Shown: one piece after another, positions 2,965 to 16,038 of the stretch
Position numbering within the stretch: the stretch's first letter is position 1
Layout of the letters: every line of letters begins with the position of its first letter
From: a virus
Taxonomy: Duplodnaviria > Heunggongvirae > Uroviricota > Caudoviricetes
Virus record (IMG/VR): IMGVR_UViG_2671180847_000011
Strand: one strand, 5' to 3'
Length of the DNA stretch: 20,048 bases
Notes under the pieces: model-generated
What the model saw: the letters and a program-made list of their open reading frames with translations, nothing else
Database searches by the model: none
Told to the model about the DNA's origin: nothing
Program-made: the position numbers and the translations under genes

Positions 2965-3261
2965 TCAGTCATTACTGATAGCGCCATAGCGTGAGCGGTA
3001 ATTACGCAGGCGCGGGTCGATATATTCAGGGAAGTGGGTATATGTGGCTTTGCGGAATGGTCGGATTGATGTCTGGTAAATTCGCTCGCGTTCTTCTTTC
3101 TCTGCAAGCCATATACAGTGGCGAAATTCCTTTTCCTCTTTCGTTTCCTGCGGTAGCGACATTATCCGGTCGTAGTTTTTCCTGAATTTATCCAGCACCT
3201 CCGATACGGAATTGCCGGAACAGCGGCGTGGGTCATCCGCACCATACAGAGGCGCTGGCAT
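2965..3261 (-). CDS. Hypothetical early protein, 98 aa (position fits an anti-RecBCD Abc-like gene; unverified)
   Basis: ORF with AAGGA RBS 7 nt upstream of ATG 3261; sits immediately downstream of the erf-ssb recombination genes. Confidence 0.5.
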   Translation of the reverse strand: MPAPLYGADDPRRCSGNSVSEVLDKFRKNYDRIMSLPQETKEEKEFRHCIWLAEKEERERIYQTSIRPFRKATYTHFPEYIDPRLRNYRSRYGAISND

Positions 3262-3284: not shown

Positions 3285-3668
3285 TCAGAATGGGATGGAA
3301 TCGTCGTATACAGGAGTGTTCTGCTGGTTACTACTTTGCTGCTGCGGGCCATTTCCTGAAGCTGCAAATCCAATCTTTGCATTCAGTAATTCAAGAGTGA
3401 TTGATTGACCATTTTGCCCCTGATAAACATCAACCCTGATGTTTTCTCCGGTAATTTCCACAATGCCACCTTCAACAAGAACACTACGGTAGTAATCCGC
3501 TTGCGCTCCCGGCTTGGCAAATACAACGGCGCTGTAGTTTGTCCATTCTTTCTTTTTTGTCTGGCGATCGTAATACTGAACGCCAGCACGGATGTTGAAT
3601 CCGATATTTTCCCCGGCCTGAAACTCTCTTGCGGGCTTGTTTAGTCTTACAGTAATCGAATGTGCCAT
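3285..3668 (-). CDS. ssb: Single-stranded DNA-binding protein-like, 127 aa
   Basis: Gly/Gln-rich tail ending in the SSB acidic tip ...PVYDDSIPF; start ATG at 3668 shares a base with the erf stop (TAATG). The track ORF extends further (to 3758) but overlaps erf. Confidence 0.65.
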   Translation of the reverse strand: MAHSITVRLNKPAREFQAGENIGFNIRAGVQYYDRQTKKKEWTNYSAVVFAKPGAQADYYRSVLVEGGIVEITGENIRVDVYQGQNGQSITLELLNAKIGFAASGNGPQQQSSNQQNTPVYDDSIPF

Positions 3669-4273
3669 TAAGCAGCCGCTCCTTCTAATTCGTCTCGTCT
3701 GATGTTGTAAACGTCCTGCGCTTTGTGCTGCTCCGGTGTGCCTTCGAGCATCTTCCACGCTTTGGCGAACGCCTGTTTAAGCTCTTCTACGGTGTTTTTC
3801 TGCATTGCTGCGTCAGTGAATGCTTTTAGAACCTGTTCAGGTGTAGGTGATGGTTTTGATTGCTTTGCTGCTGCGTTCTGCTGATGTTTATGCTCGTTTG
3901 TATCTGCATCTTTCGCATCATCAATGCCGAACAAACCATTGAGGCAATACTTGCGTGCATAAGAGCTTGTGGCTCCAGTAACTTGTGCAGAATCCATTCC
4001 TTTCTTGCTTTCTTCCTCTCGTGCAAGAGCGGTTGCCGTATGACTGTTTTCGCCATCGGTAATAGTTGCCGTGGCTTTCACGTAATACCGATCACCAATC
4101 AACACAACTTCATCGCTGATTGATAAAAACAGGCCATTCAGTAACGGCTTAACGCCTTCAAGAATGTCTTCGCAGCTTCTGTATTTATATTTACCGAATG
4201 AGTTGTACTGATTCTTTGGCGCGTTCAGATTCTCCTGAATAGCTGCCAGTCTTGCGTAAAATTCTTTGCTCAT
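3668..4273 (-). CDS. erf: Erf-family single-strand annealing protein, about 201 aa
   Basis: MSKEFYARLAAIQENLNAPKNQYNSFGKYKYRSCEDILEGVKPLL...ARKYCLNGLFGIDD closely matches my memory of P22 Erf; start set at the ATG at 4273 rather than the upstream TTG used by the track. Confidence 0.8.
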   Translation of the reverse strand: MSKEFYARLAAIQENLNAPKNQYNSFGKYKYRSCEDILEGVKPLLNGLFLSISDEVVLIGDRYYVKATATITDGENSHTATALAREEESKKGMDSAQVTGATSSYARKYCLNGLFGIDDAKDADTNEHKHQQNAAAKQSKPSPTPEQVLKAFTDAAMQKNTVEELKQAFAKAWKMLEGTPEQHKAQDVYNIRRDELEGAAA

Positions 4274-4283
4274 ATGATTGTTC

Positions 4284-4454
4284 TCAGAACGGACACGGCC
4301 CAAGGAAATAACGCTGATTTAATACTTCAGTCTTTGCCGCATTTAAAAATACGCGAACACCTTCACGATCTCCCTTCTGGCGATACATTAACGCCTGCTG
4401 CGTGTACATGCGTCTCTGTAACTTGCTCTCCTTCACTGTGGTTGCAAGTGACAT
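4284..4454 (-). CDS. Small hypothetical protein, 56 aa
   Basis: My own translation (MSLATTVKESKLQRRMYTQQ...); ATG at 4454 is preceded by AGGAG at 6-nt spacing. Overlaps the next ORF (4363-4533) in another frame, so one of the two is doubtful. Confidence 0.3.
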   Translation of the reverse strand: MSLATTVKESKLQRRMYTQQALMYRQKGDREGVRVFLNAAKTEVLNQRYFLGPCPF

Positions 4455-4822: not shown

Positions 4823-5791
4823 TTAGTAGGTTATTTTTGTTGCGAATACTTCGCCTTTTACGATGGCTGTTATGATATTTTTAGCAACATCTTCTGATGC
4901 GCCAACCTTGATAAGGTCAGCAAGTATTTTGTTATTTACTTCTTTCCGGTGAGCTTTATCCTTTGCTCTACGCTCTTCTTCGTCCTTGATTCTTTTTTCT
5001 TCTGCTATTCTGGCTTGCTCTTTTGCTTCAGCCTCGCGCCGGATTCGTTCAGCCTCCTCCTGTGCTTTTCGGCGTTCTGCTTCAATTGCCGCCTGCTTTT
5101 CTCTTTCAGCTCGTTCTGCTGCCTCTTTTGCTTCGCGCTGTGCTCGTTGCTCGGCTTCAATGCGTTCACGCTCTGCACGTTCCGCTGCGGCCTTAGCTTC
5201 TGCTTCTCGCCTTGCTGCTGCTTCAATTTCGGCTTTTGCCTTTGCTTCGGCTTCAGATCTGGCTTTCTCTTCAGCTTCTCTTTTTAAGCGTTCTTCATGC
5301 TCTCGCTTTTCCTGCTCCGCTTTGAGTCTTGCCTCTTCTCTTTGGCGGTCAAATTCGCGATCCATCAAAATCGCTATTTCATGGTCAGACTCAATTTGCT
5401 TTGCGAGAGCTTCAGCTGCTGCCTTAGCTTCTTCTTCGGCTTTAATCCGCGCCTGCTCCTCCTCATAATCAGTAAGAGGCTGGCGCGCCTTGGCTTTCAG
5501 TTCATCAAGGCGATCACGCACTGTCTTGCGGTTGGCATCAATTAGCTTTGGAATTTCCTTAAGTTCAGCAACAAGGTCTTTGCCAAGACCATCGAGATAT
5601 GTTTTCGTCTGCGCAACTTTATACGCCAGAGAAGCGATCTCCTTTCTGCCCTTTGCCGTTGTGATATCAGGCACAAAGGACATAACTTCACGTTCAACCT
5701 TTTGAAGGATTTCTTCAATCTGGTCGGCAGACTGAAATACAGTCATTGCATTTGCTTTTTCAATAACAACTAAATCTGTTACTTCACTCAT
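4823..5791 (-). CDS. Hypothetical protein with a long E/A/K/R-rich repeat region, 322 aa
   Basis: Globular N- and C-terminal parts flank about 150 residues of EAKAKAEIEAAARREAEAK-type repeats; GGAGGA RBS immediately upstream of the ATG. Confidence 0.65.
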   Translation of the reverse strand: MSEVTDLVVIEKANAMTVFQSADQIEEILQKVEREVMSFVPDITTAKGRKEIASLAYKVAQTKTYLDGLGKDLVAELKEIPKLIDANRKTVRDRLDELKAKARQPLTDYEEEQARIKAEEEAKAAAEALAKQIESDHEIAILMDREFDRQREEARLKAEQEKREHEERLKREAEEKARSEAEAKAKAEIEAAARREAEAKAAAERAERERIEAEQRAQREAKEAAERAEREKQAAIEAERRKAQEEAERIRREAEAKEQARIAEEKRIKDEEERRAKDKAHRKEVNNKILADLIKVGASEDVAKNIITAIVKGEVFATKITY

Positions 5792-5803
5792 ATATCCTCC
5801 ATC

Positions 5804-5832
5804 AAAAAAATTGCCCTCACATTAGAGGGCAA
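5804..5832 (-). terminator. Rho-independent terminator inside the leftward operon
   Basis: Stem ttgccctc(5811-5818)/gagggcaa(5825-5832), loop acatta; on the minus strand it is followed by a T7 run (forward A-run 5804-5810). Lies 13 nt upstream of the 322-aa gene start. Confidence 0.55.
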
Positions 5833-5925
5833 AGAAGATTTCCAATAATCAGAACAAGTCGGCTCCTGTTTAGTTACGAGCGACATTGCTCCGTGTATTC
5901 ATTCCAACGAGTGAATACACAGTGC

Positions 5926-6114
5926 TTATTCGTCATGCATTTCAGGTAATTCTTCGTATTCGACTCCCCATACGTTTTTACACCAACTAACTCGCTCATA
6001 TCTTTTACAAAAATCAGACCACATAACTTGTGTTCCATCATGGTTTGTTATTACTTCTGTAATATCACCAACACTAACAAAACTGGTATTAGAAGCAGTT
6101 ATTTTTACTTTCAT
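5926..6114 (-). CDS. Small hypothetical protein, 62 aa
   Basis: Track ORF; start ATG shares a base with the stop of the 44-aa ORF upstream (TAATG). Confidence 0.45.
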   Translation of the reverse strand: MKVKITASNTSFVSVGDITEVITNHDGTQVMWSDFCKRYERVSWCKNVWGVEYEELPEMHDE

Positions 6115-6248
6115 TACTCACCTCCAAGAGCATTTGCAGCCTCTTTTGCTTTGTGAATCCATAGCAGAGCCATGTAGTACACAGCCTTTTCGTCGGCTCC
6201 TGTGATATCTTGCTCTGCCATCCATTTTGTAAATTCAACTGCGTTCAT
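6114..6248 (-). CDS. Small hypothetical protein, 44 aa
   Basis: My own translation (MNAVEFTKWMAEQDITGADEKAVYYMALLWIHKAKEAANALGGE); GAGGTGA RBS upstream of ATG 6248. Confidence 0.4.
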   Translation of the reverse strand: MNAVEFTKWMAEQDITGADEKAVYYMALLWIHKAKEAANALGGE

Positions 6249-6285
6249 ATTCACCTCTGTTGTTTATGCCAAAAATAAAGGCCGA

Positions 6286-6909
6286 CTATGCGACCTCGGA
6301 AGGAAGTCCAATCATCTTATTCAAATCTTCTACCCGTAAAGCAGGAAGTGCTGTACTTGCTTTATCTGCTTCTTTTGGTAGCAATTCTTTGCTTTCAGGC
6401 CAAACTTCAATAAGTCGCTTAACTGTTGTGACTGAGTTCAAAGCAGCCCATACATTTGATTCGATATCCTTTTTCTTGGCTTCAAGTTTTTGTTGCAATG
6501 CGCAGATTTCATCAAACCTTTTTGTTATTTCGTGTTCTGCGTCAAACATGCATTTATCTTTTTCTGGGGTGGGGAGCAATATATCTTCACCGTTGCCGTC
6601 TTTTCCGTATGAATGCCAGCCAACCCTTCTTCCAGATACAGTCAGATAAATCGAAGTAGAACGAACATCGCATGAGTAAAATGAACATCCCATCTTCTCA
6701 AGTTCTTCACTTATAGCTGCTAACTTGGATGATAACCGATCCACTTCCTCAGTTTTCTTTTTACCGCCAAACGCAATAACTCTGGCGTCAAGTGCAAGCT
6801 GGTTCTTTAACTTTGTTACTTCTTCAAGTTCAGTGAAAACCCCAGACTTAATTAAAGCGTTACGAGCGATTTCCTCTTTCATTCTCGTAGTTAAGCGGAT
6901 TGATGACAT
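6286..6909 (-). CDS. Hypothetical protein, about 207 aa
   Basis: Start set at the internal ATG at 6909 (MSSIRLTTRMKEE...), which has a GAGAGGAA RBS; the track ORF begins earlier at 6969. No recognisable family. Confidence 0.55.
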   Translation of the reverse strand: MSSIRLTTRMKEEIARNALIKSGVFTELEEVTKLKNQLALDARVIAFGGKKKTEEVDRLSSKLAAISEELEKMGCSFYSCDVRSTSIYLTVSGRRVGWHSYGKDGNGEDILLPTPEKDKCMFDAEHEITKRFDEICALQQKLEAKKKDIESNVWAALNSVTTVKRLIEVWPESKELLPKEADKASTALPALRVEDLNKMIGLPSEVA

Positions 6910-7022
6910 ATTAATTCCTCTCAAATAAGTGGTTTGCTGCCTAATTTCATTTTCTGGCGACCAACACAAGTCACCCCCATTTCACTGCGTGGCTTGCGGT
7001 AGTAAATTAGGTTTGTTCAGAC

Positions 7023-7045
7023 AATAAAAAACCCACCGAAGTGGG
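7023..7045 (-). terminator. Rho-independent terminator (tL1-like) after the N-proximal genes
   Basis: Stem cccac(7032-7036)/gtggg(7041-7045), loop cgaa; on the minus strand it is followed by TTTTTTATT. Directly abuts the stop of the 7046-7384 gene. Confidence 0.6.
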
Positions 7046-7384
7046 CTATGACCATTTTTTATTTGGATTTCGTTGGTGAGCGTGATTAACAACTCTGTGC
7101 ATTACATCCTCATATTTTTCATCTTCAATTTTTTCGACATCGCGAGGAAATGGTGTTGCTAATGCTTTGTCAACTTTGTCCATTGGTTCTTCATTAATCT
7201 TATATTCAGGGCCATCATCTATAGCATTAAATCCAGGTGTTACACCGTTTTTTAATGCATATGCTATCCTTTTTTCCCATCTCGCTATTCTCCTCCTGTC
7301 TCGAGATGTAAGACCTCTATCAGATACTTTTCTGTTTTGTCCGCGGTCAGGATTAACATAAATAGTCTTTTTCACCATAAGCAT
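7046..7384 (-). CDS. Hypothetical basic protein, about 113 aa
   Basis: ORF immediately downstream of N; start uncertain (ATG at 7384 or 7378; the track uses a TTG at 7390). Confidence 0.5.
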   Translation of the reverse strand: MLMVKKTIYVNPDRGQNRKVSDRGLTSRDRRRIARWEKRIAYALKNGVTPGFNAIDDGPEYKINEEPMDKVDKALATPFPRDVEKIEDEKYEDVMHRVVNHAHQRNPNKKWS

Positions 7385-7386
7385 AC

Positions 7387-7692
7387 TCAATAAGCACCGT
7401 ACGGTAGTTTACTGTACAATTTTATTTTTTGGACTGCATGTATTTTGTTTCCTAATGGGTTTGAATCTTTGTAATAAATACTTCTATTTTTTCGAACGAC
7501 TTCTTCTTTCTTCTTGCAGCAAAGGCTTCCTAGCGATGCCGCTTTGTCTGCTCTGACGCAACCAGAGAGCTTTAGCGCAATTTTTCTCGCCAGTGCTTCA
7601 TTACTGCGTCGCTCGGCAATAAGTTCTGCTCTGCGAGCTTTGTAGCGGCTTTTTGCCGTACCTTTGGATTCTTTCCAGACAATGGTTACCAT
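7387..7692 (-). CDS. N: N-type transcription antiterminator with phage-21-type arginine-rich motif
   Basis: Contains GTAKSRYKARRAELIAERR, matching the phage 21 N boxB-binding motif as I remember it; first gene after pL/nutL; start taken at MVTIVWKESK (ATG 7692). Confidence 0.75.
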   Translation of the reverse strand: MVTIVWKESKGTAKSRYKARRAELIAERRSNEALARKIALKLSGCVRADKAASLGSLCCKKKEEVVRKNRSIYYKDSNPLGNKIHAVQKIKLYSKLPYGAY

Positions 7693-7802
7693 GATGGTCT
7701 CCTTTAAGTGGCTTTGGCGCATGACGCGTCGAGGTGCTTATCTTCTCGATCGCTGTCTTGCAGCTGCAATTCGCGCCATCCCCAAAACCACTCAAGTTCT
7801 GG

Positions 7803-7980: not shown

Positions 7981-8008
7981 GGAAATAAAAAAGGGGCGAA
8001 AGCCCCTT
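7981..8008 (-). terminator. Rho-independent terminator immediately after the repressor gene
   Basis: Stem aaggggc(7991-7997)/gcccctt(8002-8008), loop gaaa; on the minus strand followed by TTTTTTTATTT. Overlaps the repressor stop codon. Confidence 0.65.
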
Positions 8009-8657
8009 AAGGAAGGTTTGCTAGCTTGGCATCAACGACAACGCCAATGATTTTACAGTTCCCATTGATTTCAATCATTGGGTATTGTGGATTGAGTGGT
8101 TTCAGGAATTTTCTACCGGCATCAATAACTAACTTTTTGAATGTCGCCTCGTTTTCTCCTTCAAGTTTGGCGACTACCAACTTTCCATTACGTGGTTCGA
8201 CTTCTGGGTCGACGAGAATAATCATCCCCTCAGGAATACTCAGTCCTGCCGGGGCAGTCATTGAATCGCCTTTAACGTCGAGCCAAAAAGAGTCTTCAGA
8301 ACAATCTACCGTTGTGTCGTACCAGTTATCTATTGCACGCCTATGATATGGCTCTACAGCTTCCATCCAACATCCTGCGCTTACCCAACTAATTAGAGGA
8401 TACGAACCTCTTGGATCATGCCTGCTGTGATAGGCAATGTTTGAAAGACTATCCTCTCCTTTCAACAGGTAATCAGGGGAGCACTGCAAAGCCTTGGCTA
8501 AGGCCAATAGGTTTTCGCCATTGGGCTCAGTTTCAGATCGCTCCCATTGGGAAATAGCAACATTAGACACGCCAACCATCTTGCCAAGGGCAGCCTGCCT
8601 AATCTTGAGTTCTTTTCTGCGAGCGCGAATACGCTCACCCATCAGTTGTGTATTCAT
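8007..8657 (-). CDS. c2: CI-type repressor (P22 C2-like; HTH plus LexA-like S24 autopeptidase), 216 aa
   Basis: N-terminal XRE-type helix-turn-helix (QAALGKMVGVSNVAISQWER); C-terminal domain with an Ala-Gly site (VSAGCW), Ser (GDSM) and Lys (KLVVAKL). Matches P22 C2 over its length as I remember it. Confidence 0.9.
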   Translation of the reverse strand: MNTQLMGERIRARRKELKIRQAALGKMVGVSNVAISQWERSETEPNGENLLALAKALQCSPDYLLKGEDSLSNIAYHSRHDPRGSYPLISWVSAGCWMEAVEPYHRRAIDNWYDTTVDCSEDSFWLDVKGDSMTAPAGLSIPEGMIILVDPEVEPRNGKLVVAKLEGENEATFKKLVIDAGRKFLKPLNPQYPMIEINGNCKIIGVVVDAKLANLP

Positions 8658-8737: not shown

Positions 8738-8923
8738 ATGTACAAAAAAGATGTTATTGACCACTTCGGAACCCAGCGTGCTGTTGCTAAAGCACTAGGC
8801 ATTAGCGATGCAGCAGTCTCTCAGTGGAAAGAAGTTATCCCAGAGAAAGACGCCTATCGATTGGAAATCGTTACAGCTGGCGCCCTGAAGTATCAAGAAA
8901 GTGCTTACCGCCAAGCGGCATAA
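8738..8923 (+). CDS. cro: Cro repressor (P22 Cro-like), 61 aa
   Basis: MYKKDVIDHFGTQRAVAKALGISDAAVSQWKEV... is a small HTH protein divergent from the repressor gene; near-identical to P22 Cro from memory. Confidence 0.85.
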   Translation: MYKKDVIDHFGTQRAVAKALGISDAAVSQWKEVIPEKDAYRLEIVTAGALKYQESAYRQAA

Positions 8924-9038: not shown

Positions 9039-9335
9039 ATGGCACAAGCAAGCTACAGCAAGCCAACACAGCGAGAAATTGATCGCGCTGAAACTGATTT
9101 ACTCATCAACCTGTCAACGCTTACCCAGCGCGGTCTGGCAAAGATGATTGGCTGTCATGAATCGAAGATAAGCAGAACGGACTGGAGATTTATTGCTTCG
9201 GTCTTGTGTGCTTTCGGAATGGCATCAGACATCAGTCCGATTAGCAGGGCTTTTAAGTATGCGCTTGATGAAATCACAAAGAAAAAATCCCCGGCCGCCA
9301 CCGAGGATTTTAAGCAAATTGATATGCAATTCTGA
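9039..9335 (+). CDS. cII: CII-like transcriptional activator (P22 C1-like), 98 aa
   Basis: Homologous to lambda CII in my recollection, including the C-terminal [18 protein letters not shown] (lambda: KKRPAATERSEQIQMEF); sits after cro/nutR. Confidence 0.8.
9048..9061 (-). promoter_or_regulatory. CII-binding direct repeat TTGC-N6-TTGC (pRE-like)
   Basis: Minus strand reads TTGCtgtagcTTGC inside the 5' end of cII, the same location and orientation as lambda pRE. Confidence 0.45.
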
Positions 9336-9367: not shown

Positions 9368-9514
9368 ATGACAAAACAACTCAGTCCTTACCAGGACAAA
9401 ATTCACAAACACATACTACGTGATCGCTTCCTGTCCAGCTTCAAGCAGCCTGGTCGATTCCGGGCTGAGTTGGAAAAAGTGAAGCTGATGCAGAAGGAGA
9501 AAGGTCATGAGTAA
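9368..9514 (+). CDS. Small ORF between cII and O, 48 aa (position matches P22 orf48)
   Basis: My own translation ([48 protein letters not shown]); AGGAG RBS 5-6 nt upstream; its 3' end overlaps the O start. Confidence 0.45.
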
Positions 9515-10367
9515 TCTTGCAACCGTAACACATTTAAGGCCTTCACAACGGCCTGTGGAGCGTCGTGTGGCAGAAGTTGAAGATGGTTATACCCGTCTTG
9601 CAAATGCCCTGTATGAAGAGCTTATCGGCGCAGATTTAACGAAAAATCAGAGCAAGGTTGCCCACGCCATATGCCGTAAAACATACGGCTACGGTAAAAA
9701 GATGGATCGCATCTCTGATAGTCAGTTAGCTCAAATTACCAGGCTGCCAAGACAGAAGGTAAACAAGGCCAAGAATGAGCTTATCGCGATGAAGGTTATC
9801 CTTCGCGAAGGCCAGCAAATCGGGCCTAACAAGAACATCGAGGAATGGCAAATAGAAGGGTGTCACTACTCTGGTGATAATGTCACTGCATTGGTGACAA
9901 AAAGTGTCACCAAAACGGTGACAGCGCTGTCACCAAAACAGGGACACACAAAAGAAACTATTACAAAAGAAAAAAGAAATAATAAAAACACTATGTCCGA
10001 AAGTGTTCGGACGGAGTGTGAAAAATCACATGACCGTCACGAAGAAACCGACAAGGCATTCGAGGAAATATTCTGGTGTGCAGGCATGCGGAAAGCCGGG
10101 AAGAAAAACGCAGCTTCGGCATTCAGAACACAGTTCAGGGAATGGCGTAAAACTACCAGGGGTACGGCAAGCGAGTTTGCCACGATGCTGGCAGAAGACA
10201 TCGCATGCAGGAATGGTAAGCAGTTCGGATTCGACAGGTTGTTACCATCGAGCTACCTGAACGGTCAACGCTGGAACGACGAGAAGCCAGAAACTATTCA
10301 ACCACAATCCAAACCATCATCCGCAATCACCGTATCGAAAACTGGCTACGTGTTTTTCGACAGGTGA
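9507..10367 (+). CDS. O: Replication initiator, lambda O-like, 286 aa
   Basis: N-terminal domain alignable to lambda O ([14 protein letters not shown]...[11 protein letters not shown]...[25 protein letters not shown]); the origin iterons lie inside the gene. Confidence 0.85.
9861..9990 (+). repeat. Replication origin: four 19-bp iterons plus A+T-rich region
   Basis: Iterons TGTCAC-N7-(G)GTGACA/GGGACA starting at 9861, 9881, 9905 and 9928, each an internal inverted repeat, followed by an A/T-rich stretch at about 9951-9990. Same architecture as ori-lambda within O. Confidence 0.65.
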
Positions 10368-10370
10368 ACC

Positions 10371-10478
10371 ATGAAATCAAAAATCAAATCGCTACTGGTC
10401 GCTGGTTATAACCACGGCTGGTTAAGTATTTCGTTTGTCGATTTCTGGTTTAAAAATCTCAATCTGAGGGAATCATGA
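10371..10478 (+). CDS. Small ORF between O and the helicase gene, 35 aa
   Basis: My own translation (MKSKIKSLLVAGYNHGWLSISFVDFWFKNLNLRES); AGGTGA upstream; stop overlaps the helicase ATG (ATGA). May instead be a non-coding linker. Confidence 0.3.
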   Translation: MKSKIKSLLVAGYNHGWLSISFVDFWFKNLNLRES

Positions 10479-12355
10479 CGCCAAGTGAACTTAGCGACCT
10501 GCTTTGGGCGCAGGTTGACAGGGTGGCTCCGCACCTGTTGCCAAACGGCAAGAAAGAGGGGCATGAGTGGGTTGCCGGTAACGTCAATGGTGACAAGGGA
10601 AACAGCCTTAAGGTCAACCTTAGCGGCAAGAAAAAATGGGCTGATTTCGCTGAGGGAGACGGCGGTGACATGCTTGATTTGTGGATGGCATGTCGTGGAA
10701 TTAACCTGCATCAGGCTATGCAGGAAGCGAAAGCATTTCTCGGTATCAAGGATGACGATCACCATTTCGATGCCAAACGTGAGAAAAAATTCTCCAGACC
10801 TGATCGCAAGAAAATCGCCCGCTACGTTACCAGAACAGAATCCCATCTTGAGTACCTGCAATCGCGTGGCATATCGCCAGAAGTCGTAAAGCGCTACGAG
10901 GTTGTCAGCGGCAAGGTGTGGAATGGAGAACGAGAACTTGATGCACTGGTGCTTCCGTACAAACGCGATGGTGAGTTGTTGCAGGTCAAGCGAATCAGCA
11001 CTGAGCGCCCGGACGGGAAGAAAGTCATTATGGCAGAAGGTGATTGCGAACCTTGTCTGTTCGGATGGCAGGCTCTGGACGCTGGCGTAAGGGCGGTTGT
11101 ACTTTGCGAAGGCGAAATTGATTGTATGAGCTATGCGCAATACGGCATCTCGGCGTTATCCGTGCCGTTTGGTGGCGGGAAAGGCGCTAAGCAACAGTGG
11201 ATTGAGTTTGAGTATCACAACCTCGACAGGTTTGAGGAAATATTCATCTCGATGGACGTTGATGATGTTGGTCGTGAAGCCGCAAGGGAAATCGCAAGCC
11301 GACTCGGTGAACATCGTTGCCGTCTTGTTACTCTGCCGTACAAAGACATCAACGAATGCCTGATGAACGGTGTTACCGAGGATGAAATCTGGCAGTACAT
11401 CGGCACGGCATCCTACTTCGATCCTGAAGAACTCTACAGCGCGCGAGAGTTTTACCAGGACACTATCAACGCTTTCTACGGCAAGCAGCAGTATCTGTTT
11501 AATCCACCGTGGGAATCTCTGGCAGATAAATTCCAGTTCCGTGAGGCCGAGTTGACGCTGGTCAATGGTGTGAACGGTCACGGAAAAACGGAGGTTGTCG
11601 GGCATATGGCACTTGAGGCAATGCGTCAGGGTGTGAAGACATGCATCGCGTCACTTGAGCTGAAGCCTGGTATTCTCCTTAAGCGCCTTACCCGTCAGGC
11701 GACGTGCTGCAAGATGCCGCCAGTGCTGGAAATTGACTCTGCATTTAAATTTTATGACGAAAGACTTTGGGTGTTTGGCCTGACCGGAACGGCGAAAGCC
11801 GATAGGCTGATCGAAATATTCGACTACGCTCGCCGCCGATACGGGATCCAGTTATTCATCATCGACAGCCTGATGAAATGTGGCATAGGCGACGATGACT
11901 ATAACGGGCAGAAGGCGTTTGTTGACTCGATTTGCGACTTCAAAAACAAAACAAACTCCCACGTCATTCTCGTTACTCACTCCAGAAAAGGAGACAGCGA
12001 AGAAAAACCAACCGGGAAAATGGACGTAAAAGGCTCTGGAGCGATAACAGACCTGACAGACAACCTTTTCATCATCTGGCGTAACAAGGCTCGCGAGAGA
12101 GCGTTACAGAGGGTTCAGAGTGGTGAAAAGATGTCAGAGAAGGACGAACAGCTACTGGCATCTCCGGCATCTGTTTTGATGCTTGAAAAACAACGTAACG
12201 GCGAAGGTTGGGAAGGTGGTGTCCCGTTGTTCCTTGACGAGCAATCGCACCAGTTCCTGCAACTTGAATCAGGATCGCCATATAGCTACATCGCCAATAT
12301 GCCGAAATCGGAATATGACGAGGCGTGGCGACAGGAAAACGTGACGGAGTATTAA
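10475..12355 (+). CDS. Bifunctional primase-helicase (Toprim domain plus DnaB-like ATPase), 626 aa
   Basis: Toprim-like acidic motifs (VLCEGEIDCMSYAQ; DVDDVGREAA) in the N-terminal half; Walker A GVNGHGKT and Walker B LFIIDSLMK in the C-terminal half. Occupies the lambda P position. Confidence 0.8.
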   Translation: MTPSELSDLLWAQVDRVAPHLLPNGKKEGHEWVAGNVNGDKGNSLKVNLSGKKKWADFAEGDGGDMLDLWMACRGINLHQAMQEAKAFLGIKDDDHHFDAKREKKFSRPDRKKIARYVTRTESHLEYLQSRGISPEVVKRYEVVSGKVWNGERELDALVLPYKRDGELLQVKRISTERPDGKKVIMAEGDCEPCLFGWQALDAGVRAVVLCEGEIDCMSYAQYGISALSVPFGGGKGAKQQWIEFEYHNLDRFEEIFISMDVDDVGREAAREIASRLGEHRCRLVTLPYKDINECLMNGVTEDEIWQYIGTASYFDPEELYSAREFYQDTINAFYGKQQYLFNPPWESLADKFQFREAELTLVNGVNGHGKTEVVGHMALEAMRQGVKTCIASLELKPGILLKRLTRQATCCKMPPVLEIDSAFKFYDERLWVFGLTGTAKADRLIEIFDYARRRYGIQLFIIDSLMKCGIGDDDYNGQKAFVDSICDFKNKTNSHVILVTHSRKGDSEEKPTGKMDVKGSGAITDLTDNLFIIWRNKARERALQRVQSGEKMSEKDEQLLASPASVLMLEKQRNGEGWEGGVPLFLDEQSHQFLQLESGSPYSYIANMPKSEYDEAWRQENVTEY

Positions 12356-12384: not shown

Positions 12385-12417
12385 AGGCCTGCTGGTAATC
12401 GCAGGCCTTTTTATTTG
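12385..12417 (+). terminator. Rho-independent terminator (tR2-like) after the replication genes
   Basis: Stem aggcctgc(12385-12392)/gcaggcct(12401-12408), 8-nt loop, then TTTTATTTG. Confidence 0.6.
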
Positions 12418-12431
12418 GGGGAGAGTAAATC

Positions 12432-12638
12432 GTGGCTGAGTTTATGCTCGTCGCATTCAAATGCGTTGGCGTTGGATGGATTCTTCTGACGTTTTTTATT
12501 GTTCTGCATAGCTACATTCGTCTTGTTAATGACGGTAAAGACCCATGGTATACGTTGTTTGGCGCTGCATTTGTCTGGGTGATTATCGGTGTTATGCCTG
12601 TCGCTGTAGCAAAAATGGCGTGGCGTTTTGTGAGTTGA
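12432..12638 (+). CDS. Small membrane protein, 68 aa
   Basis: GTG start with GGGGGAGAG RBS; two hydrophobic helices (VAFKCVGVGWILLTFFIVL; LFGAAFVWVIIGVMPVAVA). Confidence 0.5.
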   Translation: MAEFMLVAFKCVGVGWILLTFFIVLHSYIRLVNDGKDPWYTLFGAAFVWVIIGVMPVAVAKMAWRFVS

Positions 12639-12655
12639 ACTGAGGGTAAGTATCG

Positions 12656-12913
12656 ATGGACGAATCAAGAAAGCAGTTTGAGGCGTGGTTCAAATCAGAT
12701 TATCACCCAGACAAGGTAGGGCCATATATCAAAGATATTTTGTTCTTTTCGTGGCAGGCATCGCGAGCAGCTATCGAGATTGAGTGTCTTGGAAAAAGAG
12801 AGCGTGAGGCATTTTCTACCGATTTCGAGGATGGGGTCACATTTGGTTATAACGACGCAATTAGTGAATGCGAAGGACGGATTCGCGCTGCTGGAGTCAA
12901 AGTGAAGGAGTGA
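12656..12913 (+). CDS. Hypothetical nin-region protein, 85 aa
   Basis: ORF with GAGGGTAAG RBS; no family recognised. Confidence 0.55.
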   Translation: MDESRKQFEAWFKSDYHPDKVGPYIKDILFFSWQASRAAIEIECLGKREREAFSTDFEDGVTFGYNDAISECEGRIRAAGVKVKE

Positions 12914-12915
12914 GT

Positions 12916-13101
12916 ATGAGTCGACGAAGTAGCTTTTTGGGGTTTGTAATATTCCTGTTCTGCACTGGTTACATCGTAATCTGGTCAATTTCGAACATTG
13001 ACCGTGGCGTGGCATATCTCATTGTAATGTTCTTTCCTTTGTTTCTTGGGTGGTACGCCGCAAGGTTGCTGGAAGAATGGGGTTACAGGCATAAAAAATA
13101 A
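12916..13101 (+). CDS. Small membrane protein, 61 aa
   Basis: ATG at 12916 preceded by AAGGAG at 5-nt spacing; hydrophobic segments (FLGFVIFLFCTGYIVIW; AYLIVMFFPLFLGWYAA). The track ORF starts earlier (12868) in the overlap with the previous gene. Confidence 0.45.
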   Translation: MSRRSSFLGFVIFLFCTGYIVIWSISNIDRGVAYLIVMFFPLFLGWYAARLLEEWGYRHKK

Positions 13102-13112
13102 AGGAGTATTCA

Positions 13113-13523
13113 GTGAAGCAAACAATCTTCCTCCGAACTAAGCAACAACAGCAAGCTGCAATAAATGCCATCCTCGCAACACCACTCGATAAAGACAAGC
13201 CAGTCACCATCCGCATTATTGACTACAAGCGCAACCTTGATCAGAACGCAAAATTTCACGCGATGCTGGCGGATATCGCACGTCAGGTTCAATGGTGCGG
13301 CAAATGGTTAAAACCGGAACAATGGAAGGTTTTGTTGATCAGCGGTCATGCAGTGGCAACAAAACAGGAAGCTGATGTTTTGCCAGGCCTTGAAGGCGAA
13401 TACGTCAACATTCGCGAAAGCAGCGCGCAGATGAGCGTGAAGCGTATGGCAAGTCTGATTGAGTACACGACAGCATGGGCTATTGGTCAGGGTGTCAGAT
13501 TTACCGACAGGAGGTACGAATGA
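13113..13523 (+). CDS. ninB: NinB (Orf-family recombination mediator), 136 aa
   Basis: GTG start with AAGGAG RBS; alignable to lambda NinB from memory ([25 protein letters not shown]). Confidence 0.8.
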
Positions 13524-15233: not shown

Positions 15234-15418
15234 ACGCCACAATTCAAACGATACCAGAGCTTCTTATCCAGACACGAGGCAATCAGACCGAAGTGGCGAG
15301 GATGCTTTCCTGCGCAAGAGGAACAGTGCTCAAGTACAACCGAGACAGCAAAGGCGAGCGTCACGTAATAGTTAACGGTGTCCTGATGGTCAAACAGGGC
15401 AAAAGGGGAAGGCCATGA
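15230..15418 (+). CDS. ninH: NinH, 62 aa
   Basis: KTIPELLIQTRGNQTEVARMLSCARGTVLKYNRD resembles lambda NinH. Confidence 0.7.
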   Translation: MNATIQTIPELLIQTRGNQTEVARMLSCARGTVLKYNRDSKGERHVIVNGVLMVKQGKRGRP

Positions 15419-16038
15419 GACTCGAAAGCGTAGCTAAATTTCATTCGCCAAAAAGCCCGATGATGAGTGACTCGCCACGGGCCACGGCTTCTGACTCTCT
15501 TTCCGGTACTGATGTGATGGCTGCTATGGGGATGGCGCAATCACAAGCCGGATTCGGTATGGCTGCATTCTGCGGTAAGCATGAACTCAGCCAGAACGAC
15601 AAACAAAAAGCCATCAACTATCTGATGCAATTTGCACACAAGGTATCGGGGAAATACCGTGGTGTGGCAAAGCTCGAAGGAAATACTAAGGCAAAGGTAC
15701 TGCAAGTGCTTGCAACATTTGCTTATGCGGATTATTGCCGTAGTGCCGCGACGCCGGGCGCAAGATGCAGAGATTGCCACGGTACAGGTCGGGCAGTTGA
15801 TATAGCCAAAACAGAGCTGTGGGGGAGAGTTGTTGAGAAAGAATGCGGAAGATGCAAAGGTGTCGGTTATTCAAGGATGCCTGCAAGCGCAGCATATCGC
15901 GCTGTGACAATGCTAATCCCAAACCTTACCCAACCCACCTGGTCACGCACTGTTAAGCCGCTGTATGACGCTCTGGTGGTGCAATGCCACAAGGAAGAGT
16001 CAATCGCAGACAACATTTTGAACGCGGTCACACGTTAG
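15415..16038 (+). CDS. Q: Late-gene antiterminator Q (lambda-type), 207 aa
   Basis: Sequence agrees with lambda Q essentially along its length from memory (MRLESVAKFHSPKSPMMSD...CRDCHGTGRAVD...CGRCKGVGY). Confidence 0.9.
   Translation: MRLESVAKFHSPKSPMMSDSPRATASDSLSGTDVMAAMGMAQSQAGFGMAAFCGKHELSQNDKQKAINYLMQFAHKVSGKYRGVAKLEGNTKAKVLQVLATFAYADYCRSAATPGARCRDCHGTGRAVDIAKTELWGRVVEKECGRCKGVGYSRMPASAAYRAVTMLIPNLTQPTWSRTVKPLYDALVVQCHKEESIADNILNAVTR
15702..15715 (-). promoter_or_regulatory. CII-binding TTGC-N6-TTGC repeat inside Q (paQ-like antisense promoter)
   Basis: Minus strand reads TTGCaagcacTTGC; lambda has its CII-dependent paQ inside Q. Confidence 0.4.

Follow-up and report, generated by a model that had tools for sequence, protein, structure and literature searches.

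Fusion of a DnaG-type primase with an SF4 helicase in the lambda P position of a P22-like lambdoid early region

How does a lambdoid phage start replication when the position that lambda gives to its helicase loader P is held by a gene of another kind? This question is raised by the IMG/VR virus record IMGVR_UViG_2671180847_000011 (Caudoviricetes), of which a stretch of 20,048 nucleotides (nt), one strand, was analyzed and is called the window here. The window comes from a P22-like lambdoid phage or prophage and covers its early region. Directly behind its lambda O-like initiator gene and a small open reading frame (ORF) of 35 amino acids (aa), and ahead of ninB, it carries an ORF of 626 aa in the lambda P position. 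An earlier sequence-only reading had placed a primase-helicase fusion at positions 10371–12355; this span covers two ORFs, the first of which, the 35-aa ORF, begins at 10371. We believe, with a probability of roughly 0.78, that the 626-aa ORF encodes a bifunctional primase-helicase of the T7 gene 4 type, which serves the phage as its own replicative helicase and lagging-strand primase in a lambdoid replication module of the ES18 type.

The Pfam search of the 626-aa protein matched Toprim_2 at residues 209–296 (expect value, E, 3e-12) and AAA_25 and DnaB_C at residues 355–594, and PHROG 239, named 'DNA primase/helicase', was matched over residues 2–622 (E 1.9e-171). The best PDB matches by sequence were T7 gp4 (E about 1e-23, about 23% identity) and Twinkle (E 6.5e-14). 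With the profile of an alignment of 62 relatives that are 34–60% identical to the query (alignment A3), the match to T7 gp4 reached E 5e-48 and paired profile positions 101–533 with T7 residues 55–507. The profile-profile comparison with T7 gp4 gave a probability of 99.9, and its aligned range stopped at residue 538. When the full AlphaFold model was searched with Foldseek, T7 gp4 was the best match (E 1e-22), and Twinkle, Aquifex DnaG and the T7 primase fragment were also found. The family is large, with 853 cluster representatives at E <= 1e-30, most of which have the full architecture from residue 1. The protein showed no similarity to lambda P (best BLASTP E 0.81; no P-like Pfam or PHROG match). 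These results indicate that a DnaG-type primase and a superfamily 4 (SF4) helicase of the T7 gp4/Twinkle type are joined in the 626-aa protein. The domain searches that the sequence-only reading had suggested thus found the Toprim fold of the N-terminal half, with its acidic residues aligned, and the helicase domain of the C-terminal half, and they confirmed that a primase-helicase fusion stands behind an O-type initiator in the place of P.

The catalytic residues were mapped by profile-profile alignment to T7 gp4A, and their conservation was read from alignment A3. In the primase half, R84, K122 and K128 of T7 correspond to R131, K172 and K182, and in TOPRIM, E157, D207/D209 and D237 of T7 correspond to E212, D261/D263 and D291. 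In the helicase half, T7 K318 corresponds to K371 of Walker A, which adjoins T372, T7 E343 to E395 of H1a, T7 D424 to D464 of Walker B, and T7 H465 and K467 to H502 and K505 of H3. All of the mapped residues are present. K371, E395, D464, H502, K505 and G520 are invariant, and E212, D261, D263, D291, K172 and R131 are at least 90% conserved; K182 falls below this cut-off and follows the alignment consensus GKK. The helicase motifs H1, H1a, H2, H3 and H4 were all found, and motif 4, DVKGSGA, aligns to DLRGSGA of T7. In the same motif (window 11987–12031, residues 505–519), K519 replaces T7 R487, and lysine is the consensus of the whole family. Outside the aligned range, K572 and R574 of KQRNG are at least 90% conserved and, by inspection, resemble the T7 arginine finger K520-C-R522. 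The predicted disordered acidic tail (residues 587–626) ends in NVTEY, which recalls the polymerase-binding tail of T7 gp4 and the tails of single-stranded DNA-binding proteins; it is kept in the close clade only and not throughout the family. We also considered a family-wide acidic and aromatic tail as in T7 gp4, and this was rejected as a weak tendency only (46 of 128 sequences have an aromatic residue among their last three; the last 20 residues are net negative in 69 of 128).

The first 200 residues were modeled separately with 17 homologues. The model (mean predicted local distance difference test, pLDDT, 84.9) contained two well-defined domains and a low-confidence linker at residues 95–102. 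No Pfam family passed the threshold in residues 1–150. Below the threshold, Zn_ribbon_DnaG aligned residues 26–92 with profile positions 26–92 in exact register (E 0.083), and the NCBIfam family dnaG matched residues 26–143 (E 9e-10). D57 and E60 are opposite the second CxxC of Aquifex DnaG in the alignment, and no conserved Cys/His zinc-ligand set was found in 129 family sequences. The domain is nonetheless under strong constraint in alignment A3, where S44 is invariant and G35, G39, G42, G51, D57, F58, G64, D65 and L69 are at least 90% conserved. We conclude that residues 1–92 are a zinc-less DnaG-type zinc-binding domain and that residues from about 105 to 190 are the N-terminal subdomain of the primase core. 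The sequence-only reading had taken the first 150 residues as free of known motifs and as a possible novel domain for contacts with the origin or the initiator, which would be grafted onto a Toprim-helicase core. The strong conservation of these residues and the lack of a Pfam family over threshold are what such a domain would lead us to expect, and re-use for protein contacts after the loss of the zinc ligands is possible in principle; but the in-register Zn_ribbon_DnaG alignment, the dnaG match and the two-domain model refute the proposal. The structure prediction which that reading had recommended for these residues gave DnaG-type domains and no novel one. The observation that no Pfam family passes the threshold therefore stands, the novelty of the fold does not, and we consider a grafted interaction domain highly improbable.

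The zinc motif of T7 gp4 is required for template-directed primer synthesis, so the primase activity or sequence specificity of a protein without zinc ligands may differ from that of T7. The loss of the ligands does not exclude membership of the family, because metazoan Twinkle also has a zinc-binding-like domain without zinc ligands. Metazoan Twinkle has, in addition, lost its primase catalytic residues. If the same had happened here, the helicase would be active and the primase dead, so that host DnaB would be replaced and priming would still be done by host DnaG. The missing ligands in all 129 family members fit this explanation, and a precedent is offered by P22, since a work cited in PMC8022706 is given there for the statement that the gene 12 helicase works with host DnaG. 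However, the primase catalytic residues listed above are conserved in the 626-aa protein, K182 included at the level of the consensus, which is unexpected for a decayed site, and the zinc-less domain is itself strongly constrained (S44, D57, F58, G64 and D65). A dead primase is therefore unlikely in our opinion, and we prefer a bifunctional primase-helicase. The helicase catalytic residues are intact, and independence from host DnaB loading is a plausible and reasonable expectation; independence from DnaG would be less certain, because TOPRIM and the basic residues are conserved, yet zinc ligands are missing from the zinc-binding domain.

The O-like protein upstream matches Phage_rep_O at residues 20–114 (Pfam, E 1e-37) and TIGR01610 (E 1.6e-30), and its residues 1–157 share 49% identity with lambda O. 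No similarity to lambda O was found past residue 157, that is, none to the P-binding C-terminal domain of lambda O; the C-terminal domain of the window protein (residues from about 158 to 286) belongs to phrog_33384. Four iterons, which start at 9861, 9881, 9905 and 9928, lie inside the O gene. With at most two mismatches, the iteron pattern has five matches in the window, four of them within the O gene and the fifth at 10577–10595, whereas 0.79 matches are expected by chance and none of 100 shuffles reached five. In lambda ori, an A-rich tract lies next to the iterons in the same relative position as here. We regard the four iterons as a putative origin and the A-rich tract as a putative DNA-unwinding element. 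In the records of ES18 and epsilon34, the equivalent stretch is annotated as ori, similar to lambda ori.

The initiator varies among the 16 loci that we compared, in which the primase-helicase is at least 60% identical. An initiator of the Phage_rep_O type is found in the window, ES18, epsilon34, Proteus, Xenorhabdus and others. In phiXuzhou21-Stx2a (L009 995–1771) and in locus L011 (2138–2893), the last 126 aa of the window O protein (window 9507–10367) recur with more than 95% identity behind an HTH_36 N-terminal domain, and loci L012 and L015 have the HTH_36 type without the window-type C-terminal domain. Loci L016–L018 and L040 encode initiators of 310–337 aa without a Pfam match, and L005 encodes an unrelated one of 372 aa. 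On the strength of the natural domain swap in Stx2a phages, the sequence suggests that the C-terminal domain of O is the helicase-side, partner-specific part of the initiator, as in lambda O, although not a universal one.

In close relatives from Stx2a phages and Cronobacter, a homing intein of about 342 aa (Hint+LAGLIDADG) occupies the Walker A loop (GHGK/T). The carriers are L003 2881–5789 (Min27), L009 1882–4788 (phiXuzhou21-Stx2a) and P0012. Projected onto the window, the intein lies after K371, at 11587/11588; the window allele itself has none. Inteins typically occupy conserved active-site motifs of essential proteins, and we therefore count the Walker A intein in favor of a replicative primase-helicase. 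Other members of the family have insertions ahead of residue 209 or so. In the Min27 record, frameshifts break both the initiator and the primase-helicase, and the primase-helicase appears there as 'P' plus 'DNA primase'.

Based on the above, we propose that replication would most likely proceed as follows. By homology to lambda O, the O-like initiator would bind the four iterons within its own gene and open the adjoining A-rich tract. It would then recruit the primase-helicase directly, with no loader of the P/DnaC type and no host DnaB, after which the SF4 ring would unwind the DNA and the DnaG-type primase domain would make primers for host DNA polymerase III (Pol III). We infer every one of these steps from lambda O/P and T7 gp4, and it is the anatomy alone that was observed directly: how the domains and the genes are arranged, that the catalytic residues are intact, that iterons are present, and that the window has no other helicase, loader or polymerase gene. 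Apart from the primase-helicase, no P-, DnaC-, DnaB-like or polymerase gene was found among the window ORFs scanned with Pfam and PHROG.

Several points weigh against this interpretation. The zinc-binding domain has none of its four zinc ligands. The full AlphaFold model has a mean pLDDT of 68.5 and a predicted template modeling score of 0.42, and its N-terminal half reaches 77–93, whereas the helicase half is of moderate confidence only. The likeness of R574 to an arginine finger comes from inspection of the motif and not from the alignment. The C-terminal domain of O is missing from 5 of 15 related loci that retain the primase-helicase and the small ORF. Eru5 carries this primase-helicase gene, and the replication proteins of non-lambdoid (Eru-type) Stx modules are described as unstudied (PMC8951638); our literature search found no biochemical or genetic report on this module or primase-helicase clade. 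One may also imagine that the 626-aa protein is an accessory or exclusion factor and that host DnaB is loaded by an unrecognized phage factor, such as the 35-aa peptide or the C-terminal domain of O, all the more as uncharacterized small ORFs flank the gene (10371–10478 and 12432–13101). This is hard to reconcile with the intact catalytic residues, with the lack of P-, DnaC- and DnaB-like sequences in the scan, and with the obligatory second position of the gene in the module of every relative examined, usually with a stop/start overlap, and we hold it to be next to excluded. We retain the T7 gene 4-type primase-helicase as the probable replicative helicase of this phage.

The 35-aa ORF deserves separate attention. 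It starts 3 nt past the stop of O, behind AGGTGA, and ends in a TGA that shares the sequence ATGA with the start codon of the large ORF. Its matches are phrog_21848 (E 4e-26) and ES18 gp60; from the latter it differs by 2 nt. In nine diverged versions, the length is constant and the alignment is ungapped. The versions of Proteus and Xenorhabdus differ from that of the window at 36–38 of 105 nt, of which 16–17 fall in codon position 3 and 7 in position 2, and the other frames of the ORF are all closed in this comparison. A chance ORF and an element acting at the DNA or RNA level are ruled out by this conservation of length and frame, the third-position bias and the closed other frames. The ORF precedes 15 of the 16 primase-helicase genes of at least 60% identity, whatever the type of initiator, and it is absent from one relative of 73% identity; wherever it occurs, its stop codon either overlaps the start of the helicase gene or directly adjoins it. 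In relatives of at most 44% identity, it was undetectable, and there the initiator stop mostly overlaps the helicase start directly. These results indicate that the 35-aa ORF is a real, translationally coupled and clade-specific small gene, so that the coupled upstream ORF which had been mentioned as a possibility proved to be correct.

The mildly new point of this study is that the 35-aa ORF travels with the primase-helicase clade whatever initiator lies upstream, and it accompanies the helicase behind initiators of at least four types. It is not tied to the C-terminal domain of O, since it is present in L012, L015, L016 and L018, where this domain is absent. An origin as the split-off C-terminal tail of an initiator is unsupported as well: a hidden Markov model of the peptide gave a best E of 1.3 against six-frame translations of 22 loci. 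We tentatively propose, as a possibility well short of an even chance, that the 35-aa protein (ES18 gp60 family) is a dedicated accessory subunit, adaptor or ring loader that lets one helicase serve interchangeable initiators. The zinc-less domain may have been re-used as a docking site for the 35-aa protein or for the initiator.

Similar modules have been described before. The module of ES18 (gp59-gp60-gp61), which is shared by Sf101, mEp043, SEN22 and epsilon34 (gp50-52), consists likewise of an O-like initiator with ori, the 35-aa ORF and the 626-aa primase-helicase, and nothing essential differs within it. The DNA identity of the module is 99% with Sf101 and mEp043, 92% with SEN22 and about 89% with ES18. 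In the ES18 record, gp59 is gpO-like with an internal ori, gp60 is the 35-aa ORF, and gp61 is annotated as 'putative primase/helicase; similar to phage T7 gene 4'. Close relatives go by the name 'bifunctional DNA primase/helicase' at NCBI, and some of them are called 'Twinkle protein' in UniRef and JGI.

T7 gp4 (PDB 1q57, 5ikn, 6n7i, 1nui) has the same order of zinc-binding domain, primase core (N-subdomain and TOPRIM), linker and SF4 helicase, and the same acidic C-terminal tail with an aromatic last residue. It differs from the window protein in having zinc ligands and R487 where K519 is found here, and we saw no sign here of an internal start for a short helicase-only form. T7 also depends on its own phage polymerase and on RNA-polymerase-primed origins, whereas an O-type initiator and presumably host Pol III would be used here. 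Twinkle (PDB 7t8b, 8e2l) shares the architecture and the zinc-less N-terminal domain, with strong matches in sequence and fold; the conserved primase catalytic residues of the 626-aa protein set it apart from the metazoan enzyme.

The slot and the logic of the module are those of lambda O/P and P22 gene 18/gene 12, in which an iteron-bearing initiator gene is followed by a gene for helicase function. In those phages, lambda P acts as a loader and hijacks host DnaB, and P22 gp12 is a DnaB-type helicase without primase (PMC10307801). Here, by contrast, one protein unites a primase with an SF4 helicase, and the C-terminal domain of O is unrelated to that of lambda. Among Stx phages, type Eru5 (reference Stx2a_F403, AP012529; Min27, 24B, phiXuzhou21) is defined by the same gene with the intein, and AP012529 is among the DNA matches. 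Eru5 shares the primase-helicase (about 97% DNA identity outside the insertion), the 35-aa ORF (71% amino-acid identity) and the C-terminal domain of the initiator, and differs by its HTH_36 initiator N-terminal domain in place of Phage_rep_O and by the Hint+LAGLIDADG intein after K371.

The gene has been annotated in ES18 and many relatives since 2005, and the literature already lists the ES18-type module as a type of lambdoid replication module. The architectural interpretation given by the sequence-only reading is right, but as a discovery it adds nothing, since public databases and papers already contained both the gene and this interpretation; a modest lead is offered only by the conserved 35-aa partner gene. 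The locus illustrates the known mosaicism of lambdoid modules, in which the helicase function can be provided by lambda P as a loader, by P22 gp12 as a DnaB-type helicase or, in the ES18 type, by a T7-like primase-helicase. The module is common, as the gene was found in 296 of 5426 complete E. coli genomes (about 5%), in addition to the Stx2a 'Eru5' phages. It raises the questions of how an SF4 ring is loaded by an O-type initiator, how it is coupled to host Pol III and whether the type of replication affects prophage induction. The features of the window are collected in Table 1.

Table 1. Positions of the replication module, its parts and the neighboring features in the window
Feature	Position	Strand	Remarks
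abc2	2965–3261		
erf	3668–4303		
Nmad5 protein gene	6286–6969	-	227 aa; in low-GC insert; Pfam E 4e-71
Nun-like transcription termination factor gene	7046–7390	-	phrog_5632, E 9e-71
N-like antiterminator gene	7387–7722	-	phrog_271
C2/LexA-type repressor	8007–8657		
P22-type cro	8738–8923		
cII	9039–9335		
DUF2740 ORF	9368–9514		48 aa; HK97 gp53-like; overlaps O gene start
Lambda O-like initiator gene	9507–10367	+	286 aa; Pfam Phage_rep_O
Four 19-bp iterons inside O gene (putative origin)	9861–9946		TGTCAC-N7-GTGACA; repeat family D1
A-rich tract (putative DNA-unwinding element)	9950–9993		84% A+T (7 G/C in 44 nt); immediately right of iterons
35-codon ORF	10371–10478	+	phrog_21848
Primase-helicase ORF	10475–12355	+	626 aa; Pfam, PHROG 239
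DnaG-type zinc-binding-domain fold without zinc ligands	10475–10750	+	residues 1–92
N-terminal subdomain, primase RNA-polymerase domain	10787–11044	+	residues ~105–190; conserved basic residues
TOPRIM subdomain	11087–11374	+	residues ~205–300; acidic active site intact
SF4 RecA-fold helicase domain	11510–12232	+	residues ~346–586
Predicted disordered acidic tail and stop codon	12233–12355	+	residues 587–626; pLDDT <50; ending ...SEYDEAWRQENVTEY
Terminator-like hairpin	12385–12408	+	8-bp stem, 6 G-C pairs, then TTTTATTT; consensus match only
ninB	13113–13523		then antirepressor, YbcO, RusA
Q	15415–16038		then lysis genes

Some further observations were made around the module. An antisense ORF of 244 aa (10406–11140, minus strand) lies wholly within conserved coding sequence, and we regarded it as mechanical. 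The G+C-rich hairpin with its T-run, 30 nt past the stop of the primase-helicase, is a candidate tR2-like terminator at the point where the nin region begins. Between the primase-helicase and ninB, window 12432–13101 (plus strand) holds three small ORFs of 68, 85 and 77 aa, of which the first and third are hydrophobic. This stretch is unlike ES18 (gp62/NinA) and most other relatives; of the listed phage records, vB_EcoP-720R6 is the only one whose match reaches into it (to about 12683).

Upstream of the module, the DUF2740 ORF (L001 3026–3172 in a related locus) is called a 'tail protein' by RefSeq in the cases of Sf101, mEp043 and SEN22; this label is very probably mistaken. At window 5500–7500, the GC content is low (0.39–0.40, against about 0.46–0.50 elsewhere). 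The low-GC stretch encodes Nmad5 ('nucleotide modification associated domain 5') and is separated from the repressor gene by the N-like and Nun-like genes; this insert is probably a moron or of the defence type. The Nun-like gene lies directly downstream of the N-like gene with a stop/start overlap, which is an unusual pairing of exclusion and antitermination.

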